DNA from: a virus
Taxonomy: Duplodnaviria > Caudoviricetes
Virus record (IMG/VR): IMGVR_UViG_3300020576_005084
Span: 1,184-65,183 of that record
DNA length: 64,000 nucleotides
Reading direction: 5' to 3' (one strand)
Shown here piece by piece: positions 11,739 through 43,095 of the stretch. The notes below the pieces were generated by a model, which was not told the DNA's origin, did no database searches, and worked only from the letters and a program-made list of their open reading frames with translations. Position 1 is the stretch's first letter, and each line of letters opens with the position of its first letter. Both the position numbers and the translations under genes were made by a program.

Positions 11739-11987
11739 TCACTCGCCCTTGAGCAGCAGCTTCTTGGCCCGGTCGAGCATCCAGTTGACCCGCTCCACCG
11801 TCGCGTTGGTGTTGAGCTCCAGCAGCTGGTACTCGTCCAGCGCCAGCACCACGATCTTGCCTTTAAACCGCCCACTCAGGTGATCAAGGATCTCGTCGGC
11901 CGTCATCTCGCCGATGTCCTTGGTCTTGGGTTTGAAGCGCACGATGGTGTTGTCGCGCCCAGCCGTGTCCTTTTCGTTCTTGATCAT
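11739..11987 (-). CDS. Hypothetical protein
   Basis: 82 aa; ATGA overlap with the terL stop. Confidence 0.65.
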   Translation of the reverse strand: MIKNEKDTAGRDNTIVRFKPKTKDIGEMTADEILDHLSGRFKGKIVVLALDEYQLLELNTNATVERVNWMLDRAKKLLLKGE

Positions 11988-13519
11988 CCCAGCAGGCCCA
12001 TCCCATCGTTGCCCACGTTCTCGAACGCAGGCACGTCAGGCCCCCGGTCGACATACTCGTCGTCGATAATGCGATCGATGACCTCGCACATGGCGCCGAA
12101 CGCGTCGGCGCCGTGGCTGAATTCGTCGTGGTCCGGCGTGGCTGGCTCGTTGTTGGTCTTGCGCACGATGCGCTTGTAGCGGCGCAGGCATTCCAGCAGC
12201 CGCGCGCCGCCGGTCCAGCCGGTCTCGGCCGGGTCGCTGCGGTCGGTGCCGTCGATCATGATGCGAGGGAACGCTTCGCGCGCGGCCTTGATGCGCTGCT
12301 CTGGGCCTGTGCGCTCCATGGGCTTCTTCACCCTGCATCCCAGACCCTTGAGCCACATGTAAGGGCTCTTGCCTGTCTGCGGATTCTTGTGGTCGCCGTC
12401 GTGCGGCAACCAGTGCCAGCCCCAGCGCGAGTAGCGCATGCGCCGCAAGCGTTCGACCATCTCGTCGTAGCGCTGGAAGCTGTCCTCGAGATAGTTGATC
12501 ACCGCAGCGGTCGACGGCGTGGGCTTCTGCACCACGACCACGGTCATTGCGTCGTTCCATCCCAAGTCCCAGATGAAATGCACCTGCAGCCGCGGATCAT
12601 ACGGCACGATGAAGCAGCGCTTGTCCTGCACCATCTGCGCCATTTCCTTGGAGTAGATTGCTCCGATCACGGACGATCTGCACACGCCTTCCCAGATGTT
12701 CTCGTAATCCTCCTTGGTCTTGCTGCGCTTGGCCTCGAGCCGCTTCTTGTTGAGGTTGGCAGGGAACCACGGATTGTCGGACCAGTTCATCTTGACCACG
12801 ACCGCATCGTCCGGCGGGTTGACGACGAACATCTTCCACGTCGGGTCGGTGTCCATGCCCGGGTTGAACGTCGCCCAGATCTCGCTGTTATCCTTGCGGA
12901 TGGTGGGGATCAGGATGTCCCAGCTGTTCTGGCTCACGCTCTGGGCTTCTTCCACCCAGACGATGTCGATGCCCTCGAACGACTTGATGGAGTCGGCCGT
13001 CTGGTCGCTCAGACCAGCGAACACGATCAGCGTGCCGTTGCCGCCGCGGATCTCGGTGTCGTAGACGTCGTAGAAGCCCTCAAGCCCGAGGGCGACGATG
13101 CGATCCTTGAGCAGCTGGTGCACGGACTGCTTGATCGACTTCTGCACTTCACGCGCGCAGAGAATGCGCAGCTTCTGCGCAGCGCCCAGTGCGAGCAGCG
13201 CATCGGCGACTGCCCAGCTCTTACCGCCGCCTCGCCCGCCATAGATGATCTTGTAGGTGTGCAGCTTGAGCAGGAAGCCCAGTTTCTTCGGCAGCTGGAT
13301 GTTGACCTTGCGCGACGGTTGCGTCGGCTCGTGGTCCTCCGGCATGCGGAAGAGATAGTCGTGCTCGCCTGTCTCTGCGTCTGGGTTGAAATCGTCAGCG
13401 CTGATCTCGATGCCCGGCGCGTCGGTGCAGTCGCCCACCAGATCCATGTTCATGCGGATCATGCTGGGTTGGAACGCGGGCTCGTCATCGCCGAGCAGAT
13501 CGGCATGCCTGTGCTGCAT
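11984..13519 (-). CDS. terL: Terminase large subunit (PBSX/P22-like)
   Basis: Walker A 'IIYGGRGGGKS', 'ILCAREVQKSI', Walker B 'IVWVEEAQ', 'TFNP', nuclease 'WDLGWND' and 'HDEFSHGADAF'. Has an acidic N-terminal extension of about 70 aa. Confidence 0.95.
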   Translation of the reverse strand: MQHRHADLLGDDEPAFQPSMIRMNMDLVGDCTDAPGIEISADDFNPDAETGEHDYLFRMPEDHEPTQPSRKVNIQLPKKLGFLLKLHTYKIIYGGRGGGKSWAVADALLALGAAQKLRILCAREVQKSIKQSVHQLLKDRIVALGLEGFYDVYDTEIRGGNGTLIVFAGLSDQTADSIKSFEGIDIVWVEEAQSVSQNSWDILIPTIRKDNSEIWATFNPGMDTDPTWKMFVVNPPDDAVVVKMNWSDNPWFPANLNKKRLEAKRSKTKEDYENIWEGVCRSSVIGAIYSKEMAQMVQDKRCFIVPYDPRLQVHFIWDLGWNDAMTVVVVQKPTPSTAAVINYLEDSFQRYDEMVERLRRMRYSRWGWHWLPHDGDHKNPQTGKSPYMWLKGLGCRVKKPMERTGPEQRIKAAREAFPRIMIDGTDRSDPAETGWTGGARLLECLRRYKRIVRKTNNEPATPDHDEFSHGADAFGAMCEVIDRIIDDEYVDRGPDVPAFENVGNDGMGLLG

Positions 13520-13596
13520 CAGAGTGGTCCTGTCATCAGCAGGTACAAACCGAACACGGTGGCGACGAAAGCGATCAGCACAAGGAGCTCTTTCAT
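13519..13596 (-). CDS. 25-aa single-pass membrane peptide
   Basis: MKELLVLIAFVATVFGLYLLMTGPL; ATGA overlap upstream and TGATG overlap with the terL start. Confidence 0.55.
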   Translation of the reverse strand: MKELLVLIAFVATVFGLYLLMTGPL

Positions 13597-13907
13597 TCGA
13601 CCAGATCCATGTGCTTCGCCTTGCGTGGTGGGTACACGCGCTTCTTCGGCGGGATCGCCACTGGGATCTCCTTGGCGCGCGGCAGCTCGCGCATCAGGGC
13701 GTAGGCCTGCGTGCCCTTGCCGTATCGCGCAAGGATCTGCCGCGTCGTCATCTCGTGTGTGTTCCACTTGCCCTTGTGGCTCAAGCGGACAGCGAAGTGC
13801 TGCGCGCCCGTGCGCTCGACGCGCATGCCAGCGAGCCGCATCAGGCACACGATCTCGTACACCTGATAGTTGGTGTTGCGACAAGACGAGTAGTAGCGCT
13901 TAGGCAT
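13593..13907 (-). CDS. Hypothetical basic protein
   Basis: MPKRYYSSC...HMDLVE, 104 aa, coupled to its neighbours. Confidence 0.6.
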   Translation of the reverse strand: MPKRYYSSCRNTNYQVYEIVCLMRLAGMRVERTGAQHFAVRLSHKGKWNTHEMTTRQILARYGKGTQAYALMRELPRAKEIPVAIPPKKRVYPPRKAKHMDLVE

Positions 13908-14274
13908 TCTTCGCTTGCTGCTTGCGCGCACGGTATGCGGCCTGCTTCGCAGCGTCGTTGGGGTACAGCCGCGGGCGCCCGGCGTTGGGATTGCTGCGCT
14001 TGGGTTTGACCGGATTGCCGATGTCATCACCGACGAGGTCGTAGTTGTCCGAGGTGATGTCATGCTTGCGCTCAGGCTCTGGTGCGTCTGGCACCACGGT
14101 CGACGGGTCGACAGGCTTGAAGCGCGGACGCTCGCCAGCCTGTGGCCTCGTGTCTGCGCGCACCACGGTGTCGCCGCCCTGCGTCTCCTCGACGATCAGC
14201 ACGTCGTCGTTGACCACGTTGACCGGCTCGCGCTTCGGCGCGCTCTTCAGTTTATCCCAGAGTGCGGATCCCAT
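13900..14274 (-). CDS. Hypothetical protein with a C-terminal 'GRPRLY..DAAKQAAYRARK' basic helix
   Basis: Start MGSALW at 14274 after RBS AGGAG; 124 aa. Confidence 0.65.
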   Translation of the reverse strand: MGSALWDKLKSAPKREPVNVVNDDVLIVEETQGGDTVVRADTRPQAGERPRFKPVDPSTVVPDAPEPERKHDITSDNYDLVGDDIGNPVKPKRSNPNAGRPRLYPNDAAKQAAYRARKQQAKNA

Positions 14275-14282
14275 GGTCTCTC

Positions 14283-14651
14283 CTACAGATACTTGATGGC
14301 GAAGCCGTTGCAGATCAGATGCAACGTGTTGTCGGCAATGATCAGCAGCCACACGCTCAGCCACGGCGGCACGTCGGCTGGGTAGCCTGTCGGCGTCACT
14401 GGCCAGATGCACCCGTTCTTCGCCCACACGACGAAGCGCGCAAGGCGCCAGCGATCGATGATGAAATGGGTGATGAAGATGAAGTTCAGCGCACCCCACG
14501 TTGGCGCAAGGAGAATGAACGGCAGCGAGTAGCACAGCACATGCACCACCGCGGCCAACGTCTGTTTGGTCTTCTCCGTCGCCATCCAATGCGACTGGAG
14601 CAGATAGTCGCCGATCAGGTGCGCGAGGATCTGGTCTGCTGTGATGAACAT
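14283..14651 (-). CDS. DUF3307-like membrane protein
   Basis: MFITADQILAHLIGDYLLQ...THFIIDRW...ADNTLHL: the H..GDY..Q, HF.ID and D..LH motifs of DUF3307. Confidence 0.75.
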   Translation of the reverse strand: MFITADQILAHLIGDYLLQSHWMATEKTKQTLAAVVHVLCYSLPFILLAPTWGALNFIFITHFIIDRWRLARFVVWAKNGCIWPVTPTGYPADVPPWLSVWLLIIADNTLHLICNGFAIKYL

Positions 14652-14779
14652 CAGTACCACTCCTCGTCTTTGAGCTTTTCCTCCAACGACCACGTCGCCA
14701 GCATGACGTATAGAAAGAGCAGGCCTGCACCAACTGCAGCGGACACAGGAACGATCAGCAAAAGCCAGTACGGGTTCAT
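14651..14779 (-). CDS. Small membrane protein (42 aa)
   Basis: MNPYWLLLIVPVSAAVGAGLLFLYVMLATW...; one TM helix; overlapping start/stop. Confidence 0.5.
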   Translation of the reverse strand: MNPYWLLLIVPVSAAVGAGLLFLYVMLATWSLEEKLKDEEWY

Positions 14780-15084
14780 GGGTGTGCTCCTTGATCCGTG
14801 TGCTGACGAAAGCCCTTGTAGGCATCGTGCCTGCGCGGGTGGAAGATGTTGCCGCGTGCGCGCTTCTCGAGCACAGCGTTGATGTATGCGATCTGCTTGT
14901 GCGTCACCGGCTCTTGGTACGGTGCAATGCTCTCGGGCAGGATGACCGGCTCGCGCTGGCCTTGGATGTACACGCGCAGATCGCCAGTGAACCTTTCGCG
15001 TTCTGCATGAAGCACCTTGAACGGCACGCCGCGCCAACCGCTGATGTGATCGGAGCTGTGCTCTGTGCGATTGGTCAAGGCCAT
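14776..15084 (-). CDS. Hypothetical protein
   Basis: MALTNRTEH..., 102 aa, coupled to its neighbours. Confidence 0.55.
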   Translation of the reverse strand: MALTNRTEHSSDHISGWRGVPFKVLHAERERFTGDLRVYIQGQREPVILPESIAPYQEPVTHKQIAYINAVLEKRARGNIFHPRRHDAYKGFRQHTDQGAHP

Positions 15085-15248
15085 CAGAATGCACTCCTGA
15101 CGCGCTGCCACCACGACAGCTTTGGGGGTTGGTTGAGCTGCGCGATCGCGTGCTCGGGGCGAACAACATCTTTGTGGTGCGGGCCGTGGTTGTGCAGCAC
15201 GGCGTGCAGCTGACGCTCCAGCAATTCTCTTTCGGTGAGCTCGGTCAT
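15084..15248 (-). CDS. Hypothetical protein (54 aa)
   Basis: MTELTERELL...WWQRVRSAF; RBS AGGAG. Confidence 0.55.
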   Translation of the reverse strand: MTELTERELLERQLHAVLHNHGPHHKDVVRPEHAIAQLNQPPKLSWWQRVRSAF

Positions 15249-15346
15249 GCCATCACTCCTGTTCGAACAACACCAACATCTTTGCGCACCACAAGGCGGC
15301 AGCGCAGTTGCCACGACAACCAATCGACGATGTGCTGGTTGAACAT
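15245..15346 (-). CDS. Hypothetical 33-aa protein
   Basis: MFNQHIVDWLSWQLRCRLVVRKDVGVVRTGVMA; TGATG and ATGA overlaps on both sides. Confidence 0.4.
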   Translation of the reverse strand: MFNQHIVDWLSWQLRCRLVVRKDVGVVRTGVMA

Positions 15347-15882
15347 CAAACCAGCGTCACGTTGATCGACAGGTTCTCGCGCCGCTGGTCGTTGTCCTTC
15401 TCGAATCCGCCCAGATGCTTCATGGCCATGTCGATCGCCTGCAGCTTGTTGAAGGGCTGAAAGTCATTGGGCCCCATGTGCGAGATGGCCGCTGCGGTCT
15501 TGGCATCCAGCTCTGTGAAAAGTTTTCGCGTGCCGTCTGGGTGATAGAGCTTGCGGCGATCGAACGTCGCGATCGCGTGGATCTGCGCAAGCATCTCGTC
15601 CATGTCGAGCCCGGCACGACGCAACGATGTGCCTGCGAGCTCGATGATCCGTGCACGGATCGCAGGACGACGCAGCAGGAACGGTGCGTTTGATGGAGCG
15701 TATCCAGCTGCGATCGCAGCTTGCCGAGCATTTCGCTGCAGCTCGACGTACTTTATGCAAAACAATTGCTCGGCAATCGTCAAGGTTGTTACCGGCAAAA
15801 CATTTTGTGACGGCGGGAGAAGCTCCTGTTCAGGAGTTTCGTCACCAAGCAGGTCGGAATTGTCGCGCCGCGAATCAACCAT
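15346..15882 (-). CDS. terS: Terminase small subunit
   Basis: 'EQLFCIKYV...NARQAAIAAGYA......LLRRPAI' HTH and 'K..A.DM..KHLG.F..D', both typical of TerS. Confidence 0.85.
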   Translation of the reverse strand: MVDSRRDNSDLLGDETPEQELLPPSQNVLPVTTLTIAEQLFCIKYVELQRNARQAAIAAGYAPSNAPFLLRRPAIRARIIELAGTSLRRAGLDMDEMLAQIHAIATFDRRKLYHPDGTRKLFTELDAKTAAAISHMGPNDFQPFNKLQAIDMAMKHLGGFEKDNDQRRENLSINVTLV

Positions 15883-15895
15883 GAGTTACGATTTA

Positions 15896-16078
15896 TCAGT
15901 GAAGGGCGATCTCTGTCCAATACAGCTCGCCAATGCGCCACAGGAAACGCTGCTCGATGCCGGTGACCGGGTAGCGCGTGACCACATACACCCAGTCGTC
16001 ACAGTGCAGCTGCACCTCGACCGGGGCATAGGTCGGCAGCGCCGGTAGCACATGCTCCGGGGCCTGCAGGATCGGCAT
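15896..16078 (-). CDS. Hypothetical protein
   Basis: MPILQAP..., 60 aa. Confidence 0.45.
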   Translation of the reverse strand: MPILQAPEHVLPALPTYAPVEVQLHCDDWVYVVTRYPVTGIEQRFLWRIGELYWTEIALH

Positions 16079-16082
16079 GGAA

Positions 16083-16508
16083 TTACTGCTGGGGCTTGTC
16101 TTTGGAATCGGCCTTGAAGCCGTCTTCGAAGCTGGACTGGGCGCCATCATCAGTGCCTCCGGTGGCACCACGCATCAGGTCCAGAATGGCCTTGAGGGCC
16201 TGCCCCTCATTCTCGAACGTCTGGCCTTCGGGCAGGGCGGGTGTGCCGCCCTCGGCCGGGCTGGCACCTTCGGGAGCGGCCAGATCCTCGCCATCCTCGG
16301 GCTCGTCGCCGCTGATGACGGTGTAGCTGCCGTCCTTGTTCAGCATCACCGTGCAGAGCACGGTGGCATCGCTTTCGTCGCCGTCTTCGTTGTCGTCCTG
16401 ATCCTGCGCGCCTTCGCCGTTCATGGTCTCGTTGTCGGTGTCGCCGAGGAGATCAGCGTTGCCGCTGGGAGCGGGCTGCTTGCCCGCGGTACCGTTCAGA
16501 AGTGCCAT
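16083..16508 (-). CDS. Highly acidic hypothetical protein
   Basis: 141 aa, D/E-rich; RBS GGGG/CAGG. Confidence 0.7.
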   Translation of the reverse strand: MALLNGTAGKQPAPSGNADLLGDTDNETMNGEGAQDQDDNEDGDESDATVLCTVMLNKDGSYTVISGDEPEDGEDLAAPEGASPAEGGTPALPEGQTFENEGQALKAILDLMRGATGGTDDGAQSSFEDGFKADSKDKPQQ

Positions 16509-16571
16509 AGCCAGCCCCTGCAGATGAATCAGGAGCTGACTGAAGACACAGATCGGCCATTAACGCAAGGA

Positions 16572-17384
16572 TCAGCCCAGCAGGTCGCTGTTGTCGGGCG
16601 GGGGATCTGCAGCCAGCATCTCGATATCCTCCTGCCTTGCGCTGCTCTTGTACGCCGCCTCATCTTTTTTCAAAGCCTCGTACCGTTCTATAACTTCTGA
16701 GAGAGAAATGTTCGGGCGTGTTTTTCTCAGAAGCAAGCCATAATCTTTAAGCGGGCCTGATCGCAAACCATCAAGAGATTCAGCGATTTCGTTTTTATTT
16801 TTAGACGTGTGCTTTGCCGCCCGTGATTTATTTTCAGCACCAAAAACCCTTGGAGCATTTTCCCACTCCACCGGATCGGGCCAGTCGTGTGTTTCGAGCT
16901 GACCCAACTTTCCCCTGTGGGTCTCGCATGTGCGCGTCATGCCTGTGACCGAGCGCACAAACATGGTGCTGTTGTGCTCGAACAAAACGCCACACACCTT
17001 GCAAGGCGACGACCACACATATCGGCTGCTCTTGCCTTCCCGAGACACCCCCTCGAGCCGAAAGCGTTGACCATCAGGGGTTGTGAATACTTGACCGGGC
17101 AAAAGTTTTTTATCCTCGCCCCGCTGGGCTGTTTCTTCAAAAGCAATCATCATGTGTCGAAGAGATTTTGCAGCGCCGCGCCGGGGCCTCTCAATCGGGT
17201 CATTTTCACGCGCCTGCTCATACACAATGCTGGCTTCACCTGCTGTGAGAAAAGAACCCAGATATCTTTTCTCGCCACGCACCGTGATGGCTGCAGTAAA
17301 TCGATCGATGCGCCTGTCGTAGGTCACACCAACATAGGCCGCAGCTTCTGCGCGTTTCCGCTCGAGTGTTTCGTTGTCTATCAT
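16572..17384 (-). CDS. AP2-domain DNA-binding protein with a putative Zn-binding domain
   Basis: N-terminal 'YVGVTYDRRIDRFTAAITVRGEKRYLGSFLTAGEASIVYEQA' matches AP2; internal CxxC...CxxH; lower GC than the flanks. Confidence 0.7.
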   Translation of the reverse strand: MIDNETLERKRAEAAAYVGVTYDRRIDRFTAAITVRGEKRYLGSFLTAGEASIVYEQARENDPIERPRRGAAKSLRHMMIAFEETAQRGEDKKLLPGQVFTTPDGQRFRLEGVSREGKSSRYVWSSPCKVCGVLFEHNSTMFVRSVTGMTRTCETHRGKLGQLETHDWPDPVEWENAPRVFGAENKSRAAKHTSKNKNEIAESLDGLRSGPLKDYGLLLRKTRPNISLSEVIERYEALKKDEAAYKSSARQEDIEMLAADPPPDNSDLLG

Positions 17385-17689
17385 CAGTGGCAAATCCTTT
17401 TCTTCGGATCTTTCATGTAATAAAAATCGAGCCGCATCTCAGCGTAGCCAAGATCTGTTTCGCCCCAGAGCCAGTCGACATCGAGCAGCGCCTCATAGAT
17501 GGCCGAGGGGCGGGCCCCTTCTTCCATCATGCAATCGATCACGGCATCCTTGGCATTAAGATATTCGCCATGATGTTCCACGTCGGTCAGCGGAGACTCT
17601 GGTATGTCATAGCCCCCTAATGCTTCGAACTCGGCCTGTTGTTCGAGGGTGAGCTGTTCTCTTTCGGCCTGTCTCTTTTTCGATAGCAT
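17384..17689 (-). CDS. Hypothetical protein
   Basis: First gene of the leftward arm; RBS-like GGAG upstream; TGATG overlap with the next gene. Confidence 0.6.
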   Translation of the reverse strand: MLSKKRQAEREQLTLEQQAEFEALGGYDIPESPLTDVEHHGEYLNAKDAVIDCMMEEGARPSAIYEALLDVDWLWGETDLGYAEMRLDFYYMKDPKKRICH

Positions 17690-29632: not shown

Positions 29633-30148
29633 ATGACCTTGGACGTTCGACCGCACCAATCACAGCTTGCTCCGGAGGAAAACAAATTCCACCAGGGCAA
29701 TGGCGATGACGGCAAGCACTACTGGCTGACGCCGTGGGATGCGCCGGAGTTCAAGGCGCTGGAAGCCGAGTTCGGCCCCTTCGATTTTGACCCGTGCCCG
29801 TTTCCGAAGCCGGAAGGCTTTGACGGCCTGACCTGTGAATGGGGCCAGCGCAACTATGTGAACCCGCCCTTTGGATCCATCCTGCCGCCGAGCGGTAAGG
29901 GCAGGAAGATTGGCCCGACTGGCTGGGTGCGGAAGGCCATAGCGGAAGCCCAGAAGGGCAAGCTGGTCGTGCTGGTGTACCCGGTGGACAAGTGGCTGCT
30001 GATGCTCACCAAGGCCATCCTGGGCGACCACGCCGAAATCCGAAACCTGGGCGACGTGAAGTGGAAGGCCACGGAAGACGGATCCACCGGCAAGGGGACT
30101 GGTCGGCACATCGCCTGTTTCATCCTTCACCCTCAACCCCAAACTTAG
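29633..30148 (+). CDS. Phage DNA N6-adenine methyltransferase (Dam-like, single domain)
   Basis: 'YWLTP', 'FDFDPCP', 'DGL..EW', catalytic motif IV 'NPPF' and 'WVRKA..E', the phage Dam family pattern. Confidence 0.85.
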   Translation: MTLDVRPHQSQLAPEENKFHQGNGDDGKHYWLTPWDAPEFKALEAEFGPFDFDPCPFPKPEGFDGLTCEWGQRNYVNPPFGSILPPSGKGRKIGPTGWVRKAIAEAQKGKLVVLVYPVDKWLLMLTKAILGDHAEIRNLGDVKWKATEDGSTGKGTGRHIACFILHPQPQT

Positions 30149-32476: not shown

Positions 32477-32911
32477 ATGTACAGCTTAAAGACTATCAAC
32501 GATCTGCCGTTCGCGCCGTGTCTAGCGCCGTGGGTCCGCAAGAGCTGGCTCAAGAAGATCACGGTGGAGAAGGCGCCGGACGGCTGCCGCGTCTGGGGGC
32601 GCGTGCTAGAAGGGCCCTGCTGGTTGTTTCATGGCTCCTGCAACGGCAAGGGGCATCGCAAGGTGCGGGTGCAGAAACGTCTGCAGTACCTGCACAGGTA
32701 TTCCTTCTCGGAATTCCACGGCATCCCGCTGGCGTTCGTGGACAACGGCGACCATCTCTGCAGAAACAGGAATTGCTTTCAGCCGCTTCATATCGATAAC
32801 GTGACATCACTGGAAAACTGGCTGCGCGGCGACGGCCATCTCACGACATTCAAGACCGCAGAACCAACACAGGCCGACGAAGATCTCGTGGCCGCTTTGA
32901 GAGGATACTAG
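32477..32911 (+). CDS. HNH endonuclease (His-Cys/zinc-loop type)
   Basis: 'PCWLFHG..NGKGHRK....LHRYSF......DHLCRNRNC..PLHI..V...EN'. Confidence 0.8.
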   Translation: MYSLKTINDLPFAPCLAPWVRKSWLKKITVEKAPDGCRVWGRVLEGPCWLFHGSCNGKGHRKVRVQKRLQYLHRYSFSEFHGIPLAFVDNGDHLCRNRNCFQPLHIDNVTSLENWLRGDGHLTTFKTAEPTQADEDLVAALRGY

Positions 32912-34594: not shown

Positions 34595-36643
34595 TTGTCC
34601 GTGCCGGTCCAACCGCAGCCGCGTAGCATTGCCGTCCCTGTGCCGTTGCGCGGCATCAAGGGCTGGCTGCTGTGGAAGTCCGAGCAGATGCTCGGCGAGA
34701 AGAAGCCACGCAAGATTGCCTATTGGGCTGATGGTGGAAAGCGCCACGGTGAGCAGGGAGGCGAGCACGACCGCCGCCGACTGGTCACCTACTCAGCCGC
34801 GATCGACGCGCTGGCAAAAGGAGACTTCACCGGCCTCGCCTTCGCCCCGCTGCCCGGCTTCAATGTTGTTGCGTTGGATTTCGACAACTGTGTTACCGAT
34901 CGCAGTGTGGCGAAAGAGGTGCTGGATGTAATCTACGGCACCTACGCTGAATTCAGCCCCTCGGGCAACGGTGTGCGCGCCCTCTTCCGTGGCAACGTCG
35001 GCAATCACAAGAAGATCTCCAAGGACGGCAGCATCGGGTTCGAGACCTTCTCGACCAGCGGCTTTGTCACCATCACCGGCAACATGTTGGTGGGTGTTGA
35101 TCTGGCCGGGTTCGAAGACACCGTCGCCGACGTAACAACCGCGGTTACTGAGTATTGCGAGAAACGCTTCGGCCACAACACCCGCGACGAAATCTCTAAC
35201 GCCAACGATCCGCTGGCCAATCTTAAGCCGAAGCTCGGCTTGACCATAACCCAGATCGAAGAGCTGCTGGCCCAGCTGGATCCCGACATGGACCGCGACC
35301 AGTGGATCCGTGTCGGCATGGCGGTCCACCACGAGACCGAAGGCGATGACACCGGCTTCGCCATCTGGAACGACTGGTCGGCCGAAGGCGGCAAGTACCC
35401 GTCAGAAGAAAATCTCCGCGAACAGTGGGACAGCTTCGATCGCGCGAGGAACATGGGCCGCCAAGTCAGCATGGCGACAGTCAAGCGGATGGTCAAAGAG
35501 GTGAAGGCACCGAAGCCCAGCACCGCCAGCGCTGAAGAGATCTTGGACCGTATCTCCACCATCAAGTCCGACGGGCCCGTGGCCAGCGTCGGCAGCTCCG
35601 AAGGCTTCCAAGGCAAGTTCAAGGCGTACAGCGCTGGTGTGATGTCCGATCGCCCGCCACCGGACTGGCTGATCGACGATGTAATTCCCAAGGCAGATAT
35701 CATGGTGCTCTACGGCGCCAGCGGATCCGGCAAGAGCTTCGTTGCTCTGGACATGGGCGCCAGTATCGCGCGCGGGATCCCGTGGCGCAGCAACCGGTCG
35801 ACCAAGGGCCGTGTGCTGATCATCGCGGCCGAAGGTGGTGGTGGTGTCGGCAAGCGCATCAAGGCCTACTGCCTCCACCACGGGGTTGATCCGTACACGC
35901 TCGATATCTCGGTGATCACCGCCGCGCCAAATTTCATGCAAAAGGAAGACATCGGCGAAGTCGCAGCGACCGTGAAGGACGCAGGTGGTTTCGACCTGAT
36001 CATCGTCGACACCTTTGCGCAGGTAACGCCCGGCGCCAACGAAAACGCTGGCGAGGACATGGGCCTTGCGCTGACCAATGCCAAGGTGCTGCGCGAAGTC
36101 AGTGGCGCCATGGTCCTGCTGGTGCACCACTCGGGCAAGGACGCCACGCGCGGTGCCCGAGGGTGGTCCGGCATTAAGGCCGCCATGGACGCCGAGATTG
36201 AGGTGATCAAGCACGACAACGGCGAGCGCGAGATCCGCCTGACCAAGATGAAGGACGGCGACGACGGATTCCGCTGGGGCGTCAAGCTGGAAGTGCTGCC
36301 GACCGGCAAGGACAAGCACGGCAAGGAAATCACCAGCTGCGTGGCGATCGAGACCGACGCACCGGCCGTGCGATCGCCAATGGATGACGAGCCGCGCAAG
36401 GGTGTGCGCCGCTTCTCGGCAACCGAGAATCACATTCTGGAGATTGTGGCCACCATGCCGGAGACGGCGGCAATGGGCCGGGAGAAGTTCGTTCGTTTGT
36501 GTGCGGAGACACTGCCGACACCAGAGGAAGGCACCCGCGACAACAGGATGGTGCGCACGTCAGCCGCCATCACAGATATGTGCAAGGGCAAAGACGCACC
36601 CTTCAGAGAAATCGAAGGGGTCATCCATTTTCTTGTTACCTGA
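34595..36643 (+). CDS. Primase-helicase (PrimPol-like, PriCT-2 and RepA/AAA_25 helicase domains)
   Basis: 'ALDFD', 'E.SPSG.G' primase; 'W..VGMA.H....G..IW..WS..G.KY' PriCT-2; Walker A 'YGASGSGKS', Walker B 'IIVDT', 'LVHHSGKD...GARG.S'. Confidence 0.9.
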   Translation: MSVPVQPQPRSIAVPVPLRGIKGWLLWKSEQMLGEKKPRKIAYWADGGKRHGEQGGEHDRRRLVTYSAAIDALAKGDFTGLAFAPLPGFNVVALDFDNCVTDRSVAKEVLDVIYGTYAEFSPSGNGVRALFRGNVGNHKKISKDGSIGFETFSTSGFVTITGNMLVGVDLAGFEDTVADVTTAVTEYCEKRFGHNTRDEISNANDPLANLKPKLGLTITQIEELLAQLDPDMDRDQWIRVGMAVHHETEGDDTGFAIWNDWSAEGGKYPSEENLREQWDSFDRARNMGRQVSMATVKRMVKEVKAPKPSTASAEEILDRISTIKSDGPVASVGSSEGFQGKFKAYSAGVMSDRPPPDWLIDDVIPKADIMVLYGASGSGKSFVALDMGASIARGIPWRSNRSTKGRVLIIAAEGGGGVGKRIKAYCLHHGVDPYTLDISVITAAPNFMQKEDIGEVAATVKDAGGFDLIIVDTFAQVTPGANENAGEDMGLALTNAKVLREVSGAMVLLVHHSGKDATRGARGWSGIKAAMDAEIEVIKHDNGEREIRLTKMKDGDDGFRWGVKLEVLPTGKDKHGKEITSCVAIETDAPAVRSPMDDEPRKGVRRFSATENHILEIVATMPETAAMGREKFVRLCAETLPTPEEGTRDNRMVRTSAAITDMCKGKDAPFREIEGVIHFLVT

Positions 36644-36730: not shown

Positions 36731-37075
36731 ATGTTCAAGTTGACGATTGAAGGCACGTCGCCTTCGGACCTGAAGACCAAGCTGTTGGCCGCCGCCTCGG
36801 AAATCGGAGGCGCCGCTGCCCCCGCCACCGACAAGCCCAACAAGCCTGCCGCCGCCAAGGCGCCCGCCACTCCCAAGGCACCCGCCCTGACCTTCAAGGC
36901 TGACGTCGCCCCGCTGCTGCTGCAGCTGGCCGACAAGAACCGCGACAAGGCCAAGGAAGTGCTGGCGTCGTTTGGTGTTGCCAAGGGCGCCGAGCTGACG
37001 GCGGAACAGCTGCCGGAAGCCAAGGCTGCGTTCGAAGCGGCGATTGCCGAAGTCGACGAAGATTTGGCCGGTTGA
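36731..37075 (+). CDS. Hypothetical protein (Ala/Pro/Lys linker, helical C-domain)
   Basis: 114 aa; RBS AAGGAG; type commonly found upstream of DUF2800. Confidence 0.8.
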   Translation: MFKLTIEGTSPSDLKTKLLAAASEIGGAAAPATDKPNKPAAAKAPATPKAPALTFKADVAPLLLQLADKNRDKAKEVLASFGVAKGAELTAEQLPEAKAAFEAAIAEVDEDLAG

Positions 37076-37082: not shown

Positions 37083-38303
37083 ATGGCAGAGCACGCGCTT
37101 CTGTCGCCCTCGGGCGCGCATCGTTGGATGCGTTGCCCGGGGAGCCTGCTTCTGGAGAAGGCAGCTCCAGACCGTTCTTCACGCTACGCGGATGAAGGAA
37201 CCGCGGCCCATCTAATCGCAACAGAGTGTCTGCAGTCCGACGGCAAGATCGCGCCAGACGACTATCTCGGCCGCCACCTCGACGTGGGCGAGAGCACGAT
37301 TCTTGTCGACCACGAGATGGTCCAGAGCGTCGAGCAGTTCATTGAGGTGGTCGAGAAGTACGCGGCTGGCGGCGGCCGTATCCTCGTCGACAAGCGCGTC
37401 AATTTCAGCAGCTATCTCGGCGTCGAGAACAGCACCGGCACCGCCGACGTCATCATCATTTTCCCCGACCGCATTATCGTCATCGACCTGAAGTATGGCC
37501 GAGGTGTCAAGGTCTATGCCGCACACAACGAGCAGTGCCGCCTGTACGCACTGGGCACGCTGCACGACTACGGCTTTGCCGTGGATCCGACCGACATCGT
37601 CATGGTCATCCACCAGCCTCGCCTCGAGCATGTCGACGAAGACTGCATGACCGTCGAGGATCTGGAAGCGTGGGCCCAGAACGAGGCCAAGCCCGCCGCG
37701 GCTGAAGCTCTGGCCATGTTCGACAAAAACGAAGCCGACGAACTTCGTCTTGAGCCCGGCGAAAAGCAGTGCAAGTTCTGCAGTGCCAAGGCGACGTGCC
37801 CGGCGCTGAAGGCCGAGATGCAGGTGTCGATTGGCCATGTCGCCACAGCCGAGGATTTTGCCAATCTCGACCGGCTCGACGACGACGAGCTGGAGCTGAC
37901 CATGCTCAAGGTTCCGCTGGTTGAGACCTATTGCAAGGCGGTGCGCGGCGAGATGGAGCGGCGTATGTTCGCTGGCCATAAGAGCAAGCATTTCAAAATC
38001 GTCGAAGGCAAGAAGGGCAACCGTGCGTGGTCCGACGAACAGCTGGTCGAGGCGGCGATGAAGTCGCAGAAGGTCAAGCCCGACGAAATGTATACCAAGA
38101 AGCTTGTCAGCCCCACACAGGCTGAGAAGAATCTCAAAAGTAAAAAGCCGAAGGCGTGGGCTGCTCTGCAGGAGCTTATCGTCCGCGCCCCCGGCAAGCC
38201 ATCTGTGGCACCCGTCACGGATAAGCGGGCAGAGATACCCGCTTCTGCCATCGCATCGGATTTCGCTGCGCTGGTTCAATCTGAAAATGATCAAGAGGAA
38301 TAG
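37083..38303 (+). CDS. DUF2800 Cas4-like PD-(D/E)xK exonuclease
   Basis: 'HALLSPSGAHRW..CPGS', 'GTAAH', 'GTAD', 'IDLKYGRG', 'QCRLYALG', 'CKFC.AK..C'. Confidence 0.9.
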   Translation: MAEHALLSPSGAHRWMRCPGSLLLEKAAPDRSSRYADEGTAAHLIATECLQSDGKIAPDDYLGRHLDVGESTILVDHEMVQSVEQFIEVVEKYAAGGGRILVDKRVNFSSYLGVENSTGTADVIIIFPDRIIVIDLKYGRGVKVYAAHNEQCRLYALGTLHDYGFAVDPTDIVMVIHQPRLEHVDEDCMTVEDLEAWAQNEAKPAAAEALAMFDKNEADELRLEPGEKQCKFCSAKATCPALKAEMQVSIGHVATAEDFANLDRLDDDELELTMLKVPLVETYCKAVRGEMERRMFAGHKSKHFKIVEGKKGNRAWSDEQLVEAAMKSQKVKPDEMYTKKLVSPTQAEKNLKSKKPKAWAALQELIVRAPGKPSVAPVTDKRAEIPASAIASDFAALVQSENDQEE

Positions 38304-38309: not shown

Positions 38310-38921
38310 ATGGAAATCATGCTGAAAGACGTGCGTATCGCTTTCCCCGCTATCGCGGAGAAGCAGGCGATTGGTGATGGCGAACCGGCGTATGGCGCCA
38401 AGTTCATCATCGTCCCGGGCTCGCCGATCGTGAAGGTTCTCGATGATGGGATGCTTGCCGTGGCCAAGGCCATGGACAAGTGGAAGCCCAACAACGAGGC
38501 GATCTTCAAGAAGCTGAAGGAAGACAAGAAGGTCAGCTTCATCCACGCGCCCTACTGCAACAAGAACGGCGTGCCGTATCTGGGCTTTGAAGACATGTTC
38601 TCGCTGGGCAGCCGCAACGCTTCCACCCAGCCGACCGTGTTCGACAAGTACGGCAAGCAGATCCCGGGCGACAACAAGGAAGCGATCAAGTCGTTGATCT
38701 ATTCCGGTTGCTACGTCAACGCCAAGATCCAGCTCTGGGCGCAGGACAACCAGTACGGCCGCCGCATCAATGCGTCGTTGCTGGGCGTCATGTTCTCCAA
38801 GGATGGCGAAGCGTTCGGCGGCGCGGCTCCTGCCAAGGCGTCCGACTTCGCCGAGCTGGCCGCGGATCCGGCCGAAGCCATGGACACCGTCCATGGCGGC
38901 GACGACGATCTGGTAGGCTAG
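38310..38921 (+). CDS. DUF2815 single-stranded DNA-binding protein (T7 gp2.5-like)
   Basis: 'VRIAFP', 'YGAKFI', '[33 protein letters not shown]'; acidic tail ending DDDLVG. Confidence 0.9.
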
Positions 38922-38925
38922 TCCC

Positions 38926-39198
38926 ATGGCTGGCGCCGGACACAACAGCGGCTTCGCCCGCGACGGTCTCAAGTCCTTCATCTCGCGCATCGAGCGCATG
39001 GAGGAAGAGAAAGCCGCGTTGTTGGCCGACATCAAGGAAATCTATGCCGAAGCGAAAGGTACAGGTTTTGACACCAAGATCCTGCGGAAGGTCATAGCTC
39101 TGCGGAAAATGGACAAAGCCGATCGCCAAGAAATGGAAGCCTTGGTGGATCTGTACATGAACGCCGTCGGCCAAGACGATGACGACCTGATCGGATAA
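38926..39198 (+). CDS. gapR: GapR/DUF2312 nucleoid-associated protein
   Basis: '[46 protein letters not shown]...RQE.E...DLY'. Confidence 0.93.
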
Positions 39199-39202
39199 GG
39201 TG

Positions 39203-39238
39203 GCGCCCGGCCAAAAGCCGGGCGCCCCTTTCTTTTGC
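39203..39238 (+). terminator. Intrinsic terminator/attenuator between gapR and the DNA polymerase gene
   Basis: GGCGCCCGGC-CAAAA-GCCGGGCGCC followed by CCTTTCTTTT. Confidence 0.75.
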
Positions 39239-39249
39239 GCGAGACCGCC

Positions 39250-41208
39250 GTGCCCGTACTTTTCATCGACGAAGAAACCTATAGCGAAGTGCCGATTAAA
39301 TACGGCACGCATCGCTACGCCGAGAATTCGGAGATCATCCTGTTCGGCTACGCGTGGGACGACGACCCACACCAAGTCTATGAAGGCATGCCGGGCAATC
39401 TGGAAGAGATGTTCAACGCTGCTGACGAGATTGTGATCCAGAACAGTTTCTTCGACCGCACGAATCTCGCCTACAAGGGCATAAAGATACCGATCGAAAA
39501 GATCACGGACACCATGGTGCTCGCCCTCGCGCACGGTTACCCGGCCGGGCTGGACCAGATGTGCGAGGCTCTGGATGTCCCGGTCGACAAAGCGAAGAAG
39601 AAAGACGGCAAAAAGCTGATCAATCTTTTCTGCAAACCGCGCCCGAAGAAGCAGAAGCTGCGCCGCGCAACCAAGGAGACCCACCCCAAGGAGTGGGCCG
39701 AGTTTGTCGATTATTGCGGCTTCGACATCGTGTCGATGCGGGAGTGCTGGAAGCGCCTACCCCGTTGGAATTTTCAGCCGTTCGAGCGCAAGCTCTGGTA
39801 CCTAGACCAGAAGATAAACGACCGTGGTGTCGCGATCGATCTGGATCTTGCTGCTGCCGCGCTGCGCGCCGCCGAGCGCGCCGGGCAAGTGCTGGCCGCG
39901 GAATCCGACGAGATGACGGACGGCGCGGTGAAGTCGACTACGCAGCGCGATGTGCTGATGGCGTACTTGAACAACGAGCTGTCTTTCGAGATCACGGATC
40001 TTAAAAAAGGCACCATCAAAAACATTCTGAAGAAGGGCCAGCTGGAGCCCGGGGTCAAGGAGATCCTTGAAAACCGGCTGCAAGCCGCCGCCACAAGCCC
40101 GGCGAAATACAAAGTGCTGCTCAACTCAACTTCGCTCAGCGACGGCCGCCTGCGCGGCACGCTGCAGTTCTGTGGTGCTGGCCGGACCAGCCGGTGGGGC
40201 GGCCGCTTGTTCCAACCGCAGAACCTACCGCGCCCCACCCTCGAACAGGCCATGATCGAGCTGGGCATTCTCGCCATGAAGGCGAACTGCGAAGATCTTA
40301 TCTTCGACAATGTCATGGAGCTGTGCTCGTCGGCTGTGCGCGGCGCGATCATCGCGCCAGACGGCAAGAAGCTCAGTATCTCGGACCTGAGCAATATCGA
40401 AGGCCGTGTGTCCGCGTGGGTGGCGGGGGAAGACTGGAAGGTCAAGGCGTTTGCCGAGCTCGACGCTGGCCGCGGCGTCGACATCTATGTGCTTGCTTAC
40501 TCCCGTGCGTTCGGCGTGCCTGTCGAGACAGTGCTTGCCAACAAGAAAACTGGCGACGGCATGATGCGCCAGATCGGCAAGGTCATGGAATTGGCCCTTG
40601 GATACGGCGGCGCTGTCGGCGCGTTCGCTTCCATGGCGCTTCTGTACGGCATCGAGCTGCCCGAGGACGAGATTGTCGAGATCGTTCAGAAGTGGCGCAA
40701 AGCGCACCCGGCGATCAAGCGGTACTGGTATGATCTGGAGTGGGCCATACGACAGGCCTATCGCAACCCGGGCGAGAGCTTCAAGGCTGGCCCGGTTACC
40801 GCCGATCGCGTCGGCCACACTGTGCGCCTCAAGATGCCGAGCGGATCCTACCTTTGCTACCCGCACTTCAGCGAAGGCATCGGCGAAGACAACCAGTGCT
40901 CGTACATGGGCATCAATCAATACACCCGCAAATGGGAGCGCATCCGCAGCTACGGGCCTAAGTTCTTCGAAAACGTGGTGCAGAAGATCTCGCGAGATAT
41001 TCTCGGCCGCGGCATGATCAAGGCCGAGAAAACTGGGTTTGAGATGGTCCTGCATGTCCACGACGAACTTGTCGCGGAATCCAGAGAAGACGACGAAGAC
41101 CTCACACATGCGCAGCTGTCGAAGATCTTGGCGACCAACCCGCCTTGGGCATTGAATTTGCCGCTTGCTGCTGCGGGCCACGACACCTATCGATACGCAA
41201 AGGAGTAG
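39250..41208 (+). CDS. DNA polymerase, family A (phage type) with a 3'-5' exonuclease domain
   Basis: Exo I 'LFIDEETYS', 'NS.FDR', 'DTM', 'YC..D'; polymerase 'RW.GR..Q.QNL', motif A 'DLSNIEGR', motif B 'RQIGK..ELA.GYG', motif C 'HVHDE'. Confidence 0.95.
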   Translation: MPVLFIDEETYSEVPIKYGTHRYAENSEIILFGYAWDDDPHQVYEGMPGNLEEMFNAADEIVIQNSFFDRTNLAYKGIKIPIEKITDTMVLALAHGYPAGLDQMCEALDVPVDKAKKKDGKKLINLFCKPRPKKQKLRRATKETHPKEWAEFVDYCGFDIVSMRECWKRLPRWNFQPFERKLWYLDQKINDRGVAIDLDLAAAALRAAERAGQVLAAESDEMTDGAVKSTTQRDVLMAYLNNELSFEITDLKKGTIKNILKKGQLEPGVKEILENRLQAAATSPAKYKVLLNSTSLSDGRLRGTLQFCGAGRTSRWGGRLFQPQNLPRPTLEQAMIELGILAMKANCEDLIFDNVMELCSSAVRGAIIAPDGKKLSISDLSNIEGRVSAWVAGEDWKVKAFAELDAGRGVDIYVLAYSRAFGVPVETVLANKKTGDGMMRQIGKVMELALGYGGAVGAFASMALLYGIELPEDEIVEIVQKWRKAHPAIKRYWYDLEWAIRQAYRNPGESFKAGPVTADRVGHTVRLKMPSGSYLCYPHFSEGIGEDNQCSYMGINQYTRKWERIRSYGPKFFENVVQKISRDILGRGMIKAEKTGFEMVLHVHDELVAESREDDEDLTHAQLSKILATNPPWALNLPLAAAGHDTYRYAKE

Positions 41209-41212
41209 AATA

Positions 41213-41662
41213 ATGACACCAGAAGGAAAAATCGAAAAGCACCTGAAGAAGGAAGTCCAAGCTTCCGGCGGCAAGGTGCGCAAGGTGAAATGGATCGGCA
41301 AGAGCGGAGCTCCCGATCGCCTGATGTGGTGGCCCGCCGCGCACAAGCACGACCCCATGGGCACGATACCGCGCATGGCGTTCGTGGAGCTAAAGGCAAA
41401 GGGCAAGAAGCCGACCAAGGTGCAGGAAGAAGAACACGCGGCGTTGCGCGACGATGGCTTCATTGTTCTGACGTTGGACAGCATCGAAGCGGTGGACCGG
41501 GCGATCGTGCTGGTACGCGACGGCGTGGTGGTGCCCGAGGGTGCTGCCGCAGGCGCGGCGCCACCAGCCCAGAAGAGAAAGCGGCCGTCGACGGATCACA
41601 TCGACATCGTCAAGGTGCCGCCGGATCTGCCACCGCGCGACAACTCAGATCTCGTCGAATGA
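41213..41662 (+). CDS. VRR-NUC domain nuclease
   Basis: 'E..IE..L..EV...GG..RK..W.G..GAPDR...FVELKA.GK.PT..Q'; Pro-rich tail ending DNSDLVE. Confidence 0.9.
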   Translation: MTPEGKIEKHLKKEVQASGGKVRKVKWIGKSGAPDRLMWWPAAHKHDPMGTIPRMAFVELKAKGKKPTKVQEEEHAALRDDGFIVLTLDSIEAVDRAIVLVRDGVVVPEGAAAGAAPPAQKRKRPSTDHIDIVKVPPDLPPRDNSDLVE

Positions 41663-43095
41663 GCAAGGTCTTCAAGCCGCACGAATACCAGATCCCGATG
41701 ATGGACCAGATGCGCTACAACGCGCGCACTGGCATCTGGGCTCCCATGGGCGGCGGCAAGACCGTGTGCACCGAGACCGTGCTCGACCAACTCGATCTGG
41801 TTGAGGATGTCTACCCGGTGCTGGTGCTGGCGACGAAGCGTGTGGCGCGCACGGTGTGGGGACCGGAGCTGAAGAAGTGGCAACACCTCGAGCACCTGCG
41901 CGCGTCGATCGTGCTGGGCACCGAACGCGAGCGGGCACGGGCGCTGGATGCCAGCGCGGAATACTTCTGCACCAATTACGACAATCTGGTCTGGCTGGCC
42001 GAGACCCTTGGTGACGACTGGCCCTTCAAGACCGTCGTCGCTGACGAGCTCACCAAGCTGAAATCCTTCCGCCTGCGTCAAGGCACCAAGCGTGGCAGGG
42101 CGCTGGCGAAATATGCACACACCAAGATAACCCGGTTCATCGGCCTCACCGGCACACCGTCGCCGAACGGGCTGAAGGATCTGTGGGGCCAGACATGGTT
42201 TCTGGACGAAGGCAAATCTCTCGGCCGCACCTTCACGTCGTTTCAGGAGCGGTGGTTCCAGATCAAGAAGGACGGCTACGGCCTCGAGCCGATGGAGCAC
42301 ACCGAGAAGGAGATCCACGAGCGGATCGCCAAGCTGTACATCACCGTCAAGGGGCTGCCGGTCGACGAGCCGATCTTCAAGGAGGTCTATGTCGACCTGC
42401 CCGAGAAGGCACGGCAGACCTACAAGACGATGAAGCGCGCCGCGTTTGCCGAGCTGCGCAAGGATGGCAAGGCCACTGTCGCGTCGAACGGCGGCGTCAA
42501 AACCAGCAAGCTGCGCCAGATCTGCAACGGCTTCATGTTCACGGGAGATCCCGAGAAGCCCGCCGAAAAGGACATGCACGAAAATCTCCATGACGAAAAG
42601 ATCGCGGCACTGGAGAGCATCATTGAAGAGGCCAACGGCATGCCGGTGCTGGTGGCCTACAATTTCAAGCCGGATCTGGCGAAGCTGCAGAAGGCGTTCC
42701 CACAGGGCCGCGTGCTGGACGACAAGCAGAGCACTGTCGACGCGTGGAATCGTGGTGAGATCCCGGTGCTGTTTGCGCACCCGGCGTCGGCCGGGCACGG
42801 GTTGAACCTGCAGGACGGCGGCAACATCATCGCCTTCTATGGTCTGGACTGGAATCTGGAGCTCTACCAGCAGATCATCGAGCGCATTGGCCCGCTGCGG
42901 CAGAAACAGTCCGGCTACGATCGGCCGGTGTTCGTCTATCACATCATCGCCCGGGGCACGATCGAGATCGATGTGCTCGAGCGGCTGCGCAGCAAGCGGT
43001 CGGTGCAGGACATCCTGCTGGCCGCCATGGAGCGTGACGAGCTGGGCGCCCCGGATCCGGTGGAGCTGGAGCCGCTGGAAGATCTGGTGGGTTGA
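41659..43095 (+). CDS. SNF2-family DEAD/H helicase
   Basis: True start is the ATGA overlap at 41659; 'MGGGKT', 'VVADELT', 'GLTGTP..N', 'HPASAGHGLNLQ', 'ERIG..RQ'. Confidence 0.92.
   Translation: MSKVFKPHEYQIPMMDQMRYNARTGIWAPMGGGKTVCTETVLDQLDLVEDVYPVLVLATKRVARTVWGPELKKWQHLEHLRASIVLGTERERARALDASAEYFCTNYDNLVWLAETLGDDWPFKTVVADELTKLKSFRLRQGTKRGRALAKYAHTKITRFIGLTGTPSPNGLKDLWGQTWFLDEGKSLGRTFTSFQERWFQIKKDGYGLEPMEHTEKEIHERIAKLYITVKGLPVDEPIFKEVYVDLPEKARQTYKTMKRAAFAELRKDGKATVASNGGVKTSKLRQICNGFMFTGDPEKPAEKDMHENLHDEKIAALESIIEEANGMPVLVAYNFKPDLAKLQKAFPQGRVLDDKQSTVDAWNRGEIPVLFAHPASAGHGLNLQDGGNIIAFYGLDWNLELYQQIIERIGPLRQKQSGYDRPVFVYHIIARGTIEIDVLERLRSKRSVQDILLAAMERDELGAPDPVELEPLEDLVG

Follow-up and report, generated by a model that had tools for sequence, protein, structure and literature searches.

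A short terminal tag matching the SSB tip is shared by replication, recombination and packaging proteins of a phage and its relatives and is a putative docking motif

In a 65-kb phage, a short peptide tag, identical in kind to the tip of the phage's own SSB, is carried by members of 11 protein families and is found at the same positions in their orthologues from nine related lineages. The presence of the same tag at the same places in related phages suggests an undescribed docking code. We give about an even chance to the explanation that the tag is a conserved docking motif that copies the SSB tip and is most likely read by one co-evolving site. No description of a tag of this breadth, including both terminase subunits and GapR, was found in the literature searched; the principle of a shared tip is already known from the gp2.5 and gp4 tails of T7 and the clamp-binding ends of T4.

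Every tag copy listed in a preliminary description of the window (the whole stretch of 64,000 nucleotides of phage DNA that was analysed) was located where it had been placed, and the terminal enrichment over shuffled proteomes is far beyond chance. The exact C-terminal pattern D-L-[LVIA]-[GE] occurs in 7 of the 86 called proteins versus 0.022 expected, and five further proteins have D-L-[LVI]-G-D inside residues 1–45 (0.02 expected, n = 86). The core motif is found 18 times in all 86 proteins versus 4.3 expected. Expected counts were obtained from 1000 per-protein shuffles of the 86 called proteins, and no shuffle (0/1000) matched any observed motif count. In a six-frame scan all seven stop-adjacent matches were within real genes, with none among ~370 spurious ORFs. 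The tag copies differ in codons; hence, as the preliminary description held, conservation acts on the peptide and does not reflect a DNA repeat. The AP2-like and SSB tails also have L-A-A-D-P in common, and the codons of this 5-mer differ between both genes.

Table 1. Tag copies and untagged candidate readers, with positions in the window
Feature	Tag	Residues	Gene	Strand	Remark
SSB, C-terminal tag	38907-38918		38310-38921	+	exact C-terminus, motif prototype
GapR, C-terminal tag	39184-39195		38926-39198	+	8-residue addition beyond GapR fold
Endonuclease, C-terminal tag	41648-41659		41213-41662	+	tail ~104-149
ORF 36731, C-terminal tag	37061-37072		36731-37075	+	small conserved ORF upstream of DUF2800
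SNF2 helicase, C-terminal tag	43081-43092		41659-43095	+	D-L-V-G
AP2-like DNA-binding protein, C-terminal tag	16575-16586		16572-17393	-	exact C-terminus
ORF 13593, C-terminal tag	13596-13607		13593-13907	-	small basic ORF between TerL and TerS
TerS tag	15844-15855	10-13	15346-15882	-	precedes Terminase_2 domain (residues 34-163, Pfam)
TerL, conserved tag	13433-13444	26-29	11984-13519	-	disordered N-terminal extension
TerL, second, upstream tag	13490-13501	7-10	11984-13519	-	depends on start-codon choice
ORF 16083 tag	16443-16454	19-22	16083-16508	-	acidic ORF; conserved island, lineages A, D, G
ORF 13900, internal tag	14029-14040		13900-14274	-	conserved island within variable linker
Virion-module ORF past window start, tag	259-270	18-21	-182..321	-	167 aa in full genome
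Scaffold, tag-like copy	3446-3457		2603-3580	-	acidic N-terminal part
Family A DNA polymerase (Pol A)			39235-41208	+	untagged candidate reader; Pfam, T7 analogy
Primase-helicase (PriCT_2 + AAA_25)			34601-36643	+	untagged candidate reader; Pfam
DUF2800 PD-(D/E)XK nuclease			37128-38303	+	untagged, weak candidate reader; covariation

Several other matches were not counted. The HNH protein (32477–32911), previously listed with a near-C-terminal copy, ends in a conserved segment whose shape differs from that of the tag; it was excluded from the tag count. Matches in 391–903 and 9957–10826, the primase match at 35099–35110 and the internal SNF2 match at 41794–41805 have folded or unconserved context and were taken as chance. 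The scaffold copy, listed in Table 1, is absent from all three orthologues examined; it could be newly recruited or have arisen by chance.

The suspected kinship of the tag with SSB acidic tails proved to be close, as the tag is the tip of the phage's own SSB family. The SSB is of the Enc34/T7-gp2.5 type (Pfam PF10991, Enc34_ssDNA-bd, E = 1.6e-22), and the tips of 120 homologues follow an acidic-acidic-L/F/V-hydrophobic-COOH pattern that includes N-S-D-L-V and D-D-L-V-G forms; a distant SSB clade has the tip D-D-L-L-G. It shares with these SSBs the OB fold and a disordered tail in which an acidic run leads to a hydrophobic tip whose carboxylate is free. The AF2 model has a mean pLDDT of 92, with the OB-like core above 90 and the last 13 residues at ~61.

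Among the family names proposed from the sequence, TerL, TerS, SSB, GapR, SNF2, Pol A and DUF2800 were confirmed, while 'VRR-NUC' was recovered only as the PHROG endonuclease phrog_93 and 'AP2' only as a DNA-binding segment of HNH-endonuclease PHROGs. GapR (Pfam PF10073, E = 6e-33) has the DNA-binding domain of its family, of which an acidic tail is no feature, and is tagged in 9/9 related lineages. The endonuclease consists of a folded part (residues 1–103, matched by phrog_93) and a tail that is tagged in 7 of 8 lineages. Orthologues of ORF 36731 from eight lineages end in [DES]-L-[VTAG]; those of ORF 13593 have a D-L-V or D-L-I end in two lineages and none in lineage D. Among relatives, the SNF2 helicase terminates in L-A-A or V-A-A in five lineages and in D-L-A-A in two; by this comparison, SNF2 is a recent recruit to the tag set. 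The extreme N-terminus of TerS reads N-E-D-L-V-G-D in four related lineages (N-E-D-L-V-D-H in the most distant). In TerL, residues 1–38 are modelled with pLDDT <50, and the tag island at residues 26–29 is kept in homologues down to ~60% identity. The upstream TerL copy is found only in this phage and is absent from its relatives; some TerL homologues have the tag in the upstream slot in place of the residue 26–29 slot. The alignment of ORF 13900 has an invariant D-L-V-G-D with variable flanks, and D-L-V-G-D is conserved in three lineages of the virion-module ORF at the window start.

The tethers that carry the tags are disordered and poorly conserved. The tails are add-ons to standard folds, because the most distant lineage is without the entire endonuclease tail, D-L-V-G on SNF2 is found only in this phage, TerL homologues align only from ~residue 65, and a [DE]-L-[LVI] C-terminus is found in 0 of 150 GapR family representatives. 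The pLDDT values, the absence of the endonuclease tail in the most distant lineage and the GapR comparison support the earlier view of a tag on appended disordered tails common to replication, recombination and both terminase subunits.

Orthologues in nine related phage lineages retain the motif at the same sites. The conserved tags are C-terminal in SSB, GapR, the VRR-NUC-type endonuclease, the AP2-like protein and ORFs 36731 and 13593, and N-terminal or internal in TerS, TerL, ORFs 16083 and 13900 and the window-start ORF. With GcrA and GapR, the phage clade is of an alphaproteobacterial type. In Caulobacter phage RW the C-terminal copies number only three, and the terminase has none.

The tip covaries by lineage. 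The plain tag is found at 38 of 41 orthologous C-termini in the nine related lineages. In this phage, G or E is added beyond the tip in 6/6 C-terminal copies versus 0/41 in relatives (p = 9e-8), and lineage D has an A or G end on 5/6 C-terminal copies versus 2/35 elsewhere (p = 1.6e-4), by Fisher tests that overstate independence because the lineages are few and related. These tip changes occur between phages that are 65–90% identical.

We infer that the tag serves as a handle for docking and has a single reader. The core of the motif consists of Leu between an acidic and a hydrophobic residue, frequently after Asn and Ser/Asp. A carboxylate closes the motif, provided by the chain end in C-terminal copies and by Gly with Asp/Glu in N-terminal and internal ones. 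The proteins with tethered tags belong to at least 11 conserved families: SSB, GapR, the endonuclease and ORF 36731 in replication and recombination (with SNF2 in this phage), the AP2-like protein in DNA binding, and TerS, TerL, ORFs 13593, 13900 and 16083 and the window-start ORF in packaging and the virion. One binding site, co-evolving with the tip, would read all copies and so gather proteins of replication, recombination, nucleoid remodelling and packaging at one place on phage DNA. The covariation could also reflect a general pressure on chain ends, such as host proteases or a tip-sensing defence.

Three untagged proteins are candidates for the reader. Pol A is a candidate by analogy with T7; a PDB search detected no sequence link to T7 gp5, and the T7 basic patch therefore cannot be mapped on Pol A. 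The primase-helicase is a candidate by analogy with T7 gp4. The DUF2800 nuclease is a weak candidate: of the proteins represented in nine lineages, it is the only one in which both tip-variant lineages differ at two columns that are invariant elsewhere.

A different possibility, which we hold tentatively, is that the tag is a generic handle resembling an SSB tail and that the replication and packaging sets have different readers, the former docking on a polymerase, helicase or nuclease and the terminase and virion set using a look-alike of the tag on another surface (such as TerS, TerL or the portal), with no single hub. The sets do differ in position, being C-terminal in replication proteins and N-terminal or internal with G-D/E in packaging proteins; the more distant lineage I keeps the packaging and GapR tags without the endonuclease tail and with an altered SSB tip, and the terminase of Caulobacter phage RW is untagged beside its three C-terminal copies. 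However, both sets have an identical extended consensus, (D)-N-[SD]-D-L-[VLI], and the C-terminal copies of this phage gained the G typical of the internal form.

As every tagged protein handles DNA, the tails could also be cis regulators that fold back as DNA mimics on their own DNA-binding surfaces, without a common partner; T7 gp2.5, T4 gp32 and Enc34 ORF6 are precedents. The tail of the Enc34 SSB (ORF6) tunes discrimination of ssDNA and dsDNA and, in the crystal, occupies a neighbouring molecule's OB groove, and in our SSB model the tail part D-F-A-x-L-A, upstream of the tip, is placed on the core with pLDDT 84. What makes this reading doubtful is the tip itself, which is not docked in cis in the SSB and TerL models and falls within the last 11 residues that are disordered and invisible in the Enc34 crystal. 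A specific Leu-hydrophobic tip changing across unrelated folds in one lineage would also be unexpected for cis regulators.

We rate as improbable a reader of host origin, such as the beta sliding clamp or a host enzyme that binds SSB tails, by which the phage would connect its proteins to a host hub. Many DNA-metabolism proteins have the beta-clamp motif Q-L-[SD]-L-F at their very N- or C-terminus, and all of them bind one hub. The tags resemble this five-residue motif in their position at extreme termini of such proteins, the order amide-x-acid-Leu-hydrophobic loosely parallels it, and the phage genome has no sliding clamp gene of its own. However, the defining Gln and aromatic end are missing, as in the cross-lineage tag logo Asn/Asp/His stand at the Gln position and Val/Leu/Ile/Ala at the end, and the acidic run is foreign to the clamp motif. 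The polymerase, expected to be the prime clamp client, is untagged, and tip changes between phages 65–90% identical fit a fast-evolving phage reader better than a conserved pocket of a host protein.

Last among the readings still standing, and unlikely, is a role of the tag in degradation or stability, as a signal by which a host protease times protein turnover. The same motif is also N-terminal and internal, its carriers include proteins needed in bulk or late (SSB, TerS, TerL), and it is the ancestral tip of the SSB family, whose tails are interaction modules; these points outweigh the facts that hydrophobic C-termini can be degrons, that the SNF2 ends of relatives are ssrA-like and that the G or E added here could be an escape from recognition. 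No tag in this phage has an ssrA-like end (Ala-Ala after a hydrophobic residue), which is confined to the SNF2 of relatives. An origin of the pattern in chance, or in the composition of acidic ends of low complexity, suggested by the post hoc definition of the motif and by the copies in the scaffold, 391–903 and 9957–10826 that are unconserved or inside folded domains, is already refuted by the shuffles and the nine-lineage conservation.

The docking motif proposed here has its closest parallels in systems where unrelated proteins of a phage share one tip, as they do in this phage. In T7, the acidic tails of gp2.5 and gp4, which end in Asp-Phe, dock on basic patches of gp5. Our phage has the same type of SSB (Enc34/gp2.5), a disordered acidic tail, a hydrophobic tip with a free carboxylate and more than one protein with the tip. 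It differs from T7 in that the tag extends to at least 11 families, including both terminase subunits, GapR, the endonuclease and virion-module ORFs, in that N-terminal and internal versions exist, and in the tip, which is Leu with an aliphatic residue (and G or E) rather than Phe. In T4, gp43, gp33 and gp55 bind the sliding clamp gp45 through C-terminal epitopes that are acidic-hydrophobic and interchangeable. Both T4 and this phage have one short epitope on several unrelated proteins with divergent flexible linkers, and replication is coupled to another late function; in contrast to T4, there is no clamp gene, the clients are many more and include packaging enzymes, and the motif is another one. 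The bacterial SSB tip D-D-D-I-P-F is a docking peptide on a disordered tail, with three acidic residues before a hydrophobic end. The architecture is inverted in comparison: bacteria have one tagged SSB and many partners that bear the pocket, whereas in this phage many proteins are tagged.

The C-terminal form of the acidic tag, D-L-[LVIA]-[GE], was found at the exact chain end of seven proteins: an AP2-like protein, ORF 13593, ORF 36731 (ORFs are named by their start in the window), SSB, GapR, an endonuclease and an SNF2 helicase. The window itself was used to train the codon-usage model that called the 86 genes searched, and the gene models of TerS and the AP2-like ORF were corrected by homology. 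Per-protein shuffling of this set yielded a mean of 0.022 such C-termini, and none of 1000 shuffles reached seven. The N-terminal form, D-L-[LVI]-G-D, occurs five times in the first 45 residues (twice in TerL and once each in TerS, ORF 16083 and an ORF truncated at the window start) versus 0.02 expected, and ORF 13900 holds one internal copy. All stop-adjacent copies recovered by a six-frame scan lie inside real genes. Comparison with shuffled proteins had been proposed in the preliminary description, and terminal tags exceed that background in both forms.

Positions of the tagged proteins and other features in the window
Feature	Position	Strand
Small virion-module protein	6433-6885	
TerL C-terminus	11984-12004	
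ORF 13593	13593-13907	-
ORF 13900	13900-14274	-
ORF 16083	16083-16508	-
AP2-like protein	16572-17393	-
Dam-like methylase fragment match	29633-30148	
HNH protein	32477-32911	
ORF 36731	36731-37075	+
DUF2800 nuclease C-end	38250-38303	
SSB tail with second conserved island	38835-38880	
Endonuclease	41213-41662	+
SNF2 helicase	41659-43095	+
SNF2 C-terminus	43081-43095	

The window covers 64,000 of the 65,183 bases of the virus record, which has a 77-base terminal repeat; the G+C content of the phage is about 60%. The leftward virion and packaging arm includes an SU10-type portal, scaffold, capsid, TerL, TerS and a 2632-aa protein. The rightward early and replication arm includes GcrA, a Dam-like gene, a PriCT_2/AAA_25 primase-helicase, a DUF2800 nuclease, an Enc34/DUF2815 SSB, GapR, a family A polymerase (Pol A), the endonuclease and the SNF2 helicase. 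For the replication module, the closest cultured relatives are Caulobacter phages RW, KcrB, RLK and GB2A (about 67% DNA identity), which makes an alphaproteobacterial host likely. Pol A is 909-960 aa long in three related lineages (L096, L106 and Caulobacter phage RW) versus 652-665 aa elsewhere; the greater length indicates an insert, possibly an intein.

The codons of the tag vary from copy to copy, and GATC within it (GAT-CTN) is no more frequent than at other Asp-Leu pairs of the genome. A DNA-level explanation is therefore ruled out and the signal lies in the peptide, as had been claimed against a DNA repeat. GATC as such occurs 607 times in the whole genome versus 232 expected from base composition, and 72 of 103 Asp-Leu dipeptides are written GAT-C.., though GAT accounts for only a third of Asp codons. 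A match to a Dam-like methylase fragment is also encoded.

The tags are mostly conserved in nine related lineages with 55-93% protein identity, taken from Logan, JGI, NCBI and IMG/VR contigs. [DES]-L-[LVIATG] ends are present at 38 of the 41 orthologous C-termini of SSB, GapR, endonuclease, ORF 36731, AP2-like and ORF 13593, a count taken directly from the ortholog table, the island score from automatic alignment being spoiled for C-terminal tags by the one-residue offset of this phage. TerS orthologues start with N-E-D-L-V followed by G-D or D, and TerL orthologues carry N-x-D-L-V-[GQD]-[DE]. The same island is retained in relatives of ORF 16083, ORF 13900 and the window-start ORF; in the alignment of ORF 13900 it is invariant within a linker that varies in both length and sequence. 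Caulobacter phage RW has a smaller tagged set (SSB, GapR and gp13c). In the cultured Caulobacter phages RW, KcrB, RLK and GB2A, the C-termini of SSB, GapR and gp13c are D-D-F-V, E-D-L-V and D-D-L-V. The existence of a conserved, selected and shared tag is nearly certain.

By their distribution the tails are add-ons, in agreement with the earlier claim that they are appended to standard families. The endonuclease tail is absent in the most distant lineage, and a tag-like end was found in none of 150 GapR-family representatives. TerL homologues with as little as about 60% identity still have N-S-D-L-V-like N-termini. In IMG/VR, the alignment of TerL homologues begins only near residue 65; that of the nearest cultured TerL relatives, F116/H66-like Pseudomonas phages, begins only at residue 72, the N-terminal tag region being outside it.

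Several other ends resemble the tag. The HNH protein had been listed among its carriers; its C-terminal segment, conserved in four lineages as [DE]-D-L-x-A-x-x-x-R-G-Y, has a tag-like start and continues as a different motif. The TerL C-terminus G-M-G-L-L-G is kept across the whole TerL family with G508 and L510 nearly invariant (alignment A1); this motif is separate from the tag and is perhaps a portal-binding end. In the closest lineage (L104) the portal, encoded by gene 14091-16628, has the tag-like end N-D-D-L-V-S, and the portal of this phage has no such end. Orthologues of the small virion-module protein end with G-D-L-[VI]-x-E and the copy in this phage with G-A-L-I-T-E; such an end may be a variant of the tag or may belong to the fold.

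The SSB is of the Enc34/T7-gp2.5 type. Among 120 SSB homologues, the chain end consists of two acidic or polar residues, then L, F or V, then a hydrophobic residue. The ends in close relatives include N-S-D-L-V, D-D-L-V and N-S-D-L-G, a distant clade of the same family ends with D-D-L-L-G, and for Enc34 a D-E-V end is implied by a primer sequence given in its paper. Since these ends match the tag, the tag on the other proteins is the SSB tip. L-A-A-D-P from the SSB tail recurs in the AP2-like tail, written in other codons. Another conserved island of the SSB tail, D-F-A-x-L-A, has pLDDT 84 in the AF2 model; at the C-end of the DUF2800 nuclease, a similar stretch, D-F-A-A-L-V with an acidic run after it, is kept in relatives.

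The form of the tip varies between lineages. One extra residue (G or E) follows it in all six C-terminal copies outside SNF2 in this phage versus none of 41 orthologous ends in relatives (Fisher p = 9e-8), and lineage D, represented by two contigs of one assembly, has A or G ends in five of six cases versus 2 of 35 elsewhere (p = 1.6e-4); both tests treat genes and lineages as independent, so their significance is overstated. The SNF2 C-terminus is ..P-L-A-A or ..P-V-A-A in five lineages (among L096-L107) and ..D-L-A-A in two, and has the tag form D-L-V-G only in this phage. The ends of the five lineages resemble an ssrA-type end. Stop-codon mutation as the source of the extra residue was ruled out: the Gly codons are mostly GGC or GGT, each directly before an in-frame stop. 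Even so, it is difficult to account for seven separate additions of one codon within a single genome unless they share a cause. The extended D-L-V-G-COOH equals the internal D-L-V-G-D cut after Gly, so that what is read seems to include a negative charge one or two positions past the hydrophobic residue.

In AF2 models built with deep alignments, residues 1-38 of TerL, which hold both of its tags, have pLDDT below 50. The last 13 residues of SSB have pLDDT of about 61 versus above 90 in the core, and the last 11 residues are not seen in the Enc34 SSB crystal; thus the tip is free and undocked in cis. Docking of the tag in cis was ruled out in single-chain AF2 models of full-length SSB and TerL.

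In the favoured reading, the tag is a docking motif like an SSB tail, carried by many proteins, and a common site would read it and co-evolve with the tip. In the module that accompanies this SSB family, the conserved proteins that have no tag are Pol A, the primase-helicase and DUF2800. A crude scan for columns invariant elsewhere and changed in both tip-variant lineages gave a weak lead, A248 and L280 of DUF2800; no such columns were found in Pol A, the primase-helicase or SNF2. This points weakly to DUF2800 as a candidate reader. A profile search of PDB with Pol A recovered chains of the Pol I type only, and nothing that connects it to T7 gp5.

A single reader for all tags has about an even chance, and the first alternative is that several readers share them. 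The tails could also act in cis as DNA mimics on the proteins that bear them, an explanation to be set beside the free tip. The binding partner could instead be a hub of the host, for example the beta clamp; a PF00712 search found no match to a sliding clamp in the phage. The tag could otherwise be a degron, and chance is hardly compatible with the shuffling counts.

The fuller proposal built on a single reader is a tentative and rather doubtful one. The tag would then be an address code used throughout the phage: a single reader that evolves fast, probably a protein of the DUF2800/SSB/Pol A replication module, would recognise the SSB tip on whichever protein displays it. Terminase loading and GapR-type DNA remodelling would thereby be coupled to replication and recombination on the same DNA. 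Specificity would be set by the tip of each lineage, whether plain, A/G-ended or G/E-extended, and would keep the machineries of related phages orthogonal. More speculatively, the terminase could be tagged so that, during packaging, the formation of ends is coupled to DNA synthesis and the resolution of branches.

If one site reads the tag, replication, recombination, chromosome remodelling and genome packaging would be wired together by one transferable peptide about five residues long. The tag would then be a simple handle for locating the centre that organises phage DNA metabolism, and could help to give roles to small tagged ORFs without assigned function or bring cargo to the sites of phage replication or packaging. 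The change of tip between lineages offers a natural specificity experiment. Literature searches found no description of a phage-wide shared tail beyond T7, T4 and Enc34. The principle is established in T7, where the tails of gp2.5 and gp4 dock on a basic patch of gp5, and in T4, where gp43, gp33 and gp55 bind gp45 through interchangeable ends on flexible linkers. Compared with these tail systems, the tag system would be much broader, provided that one site reads it.
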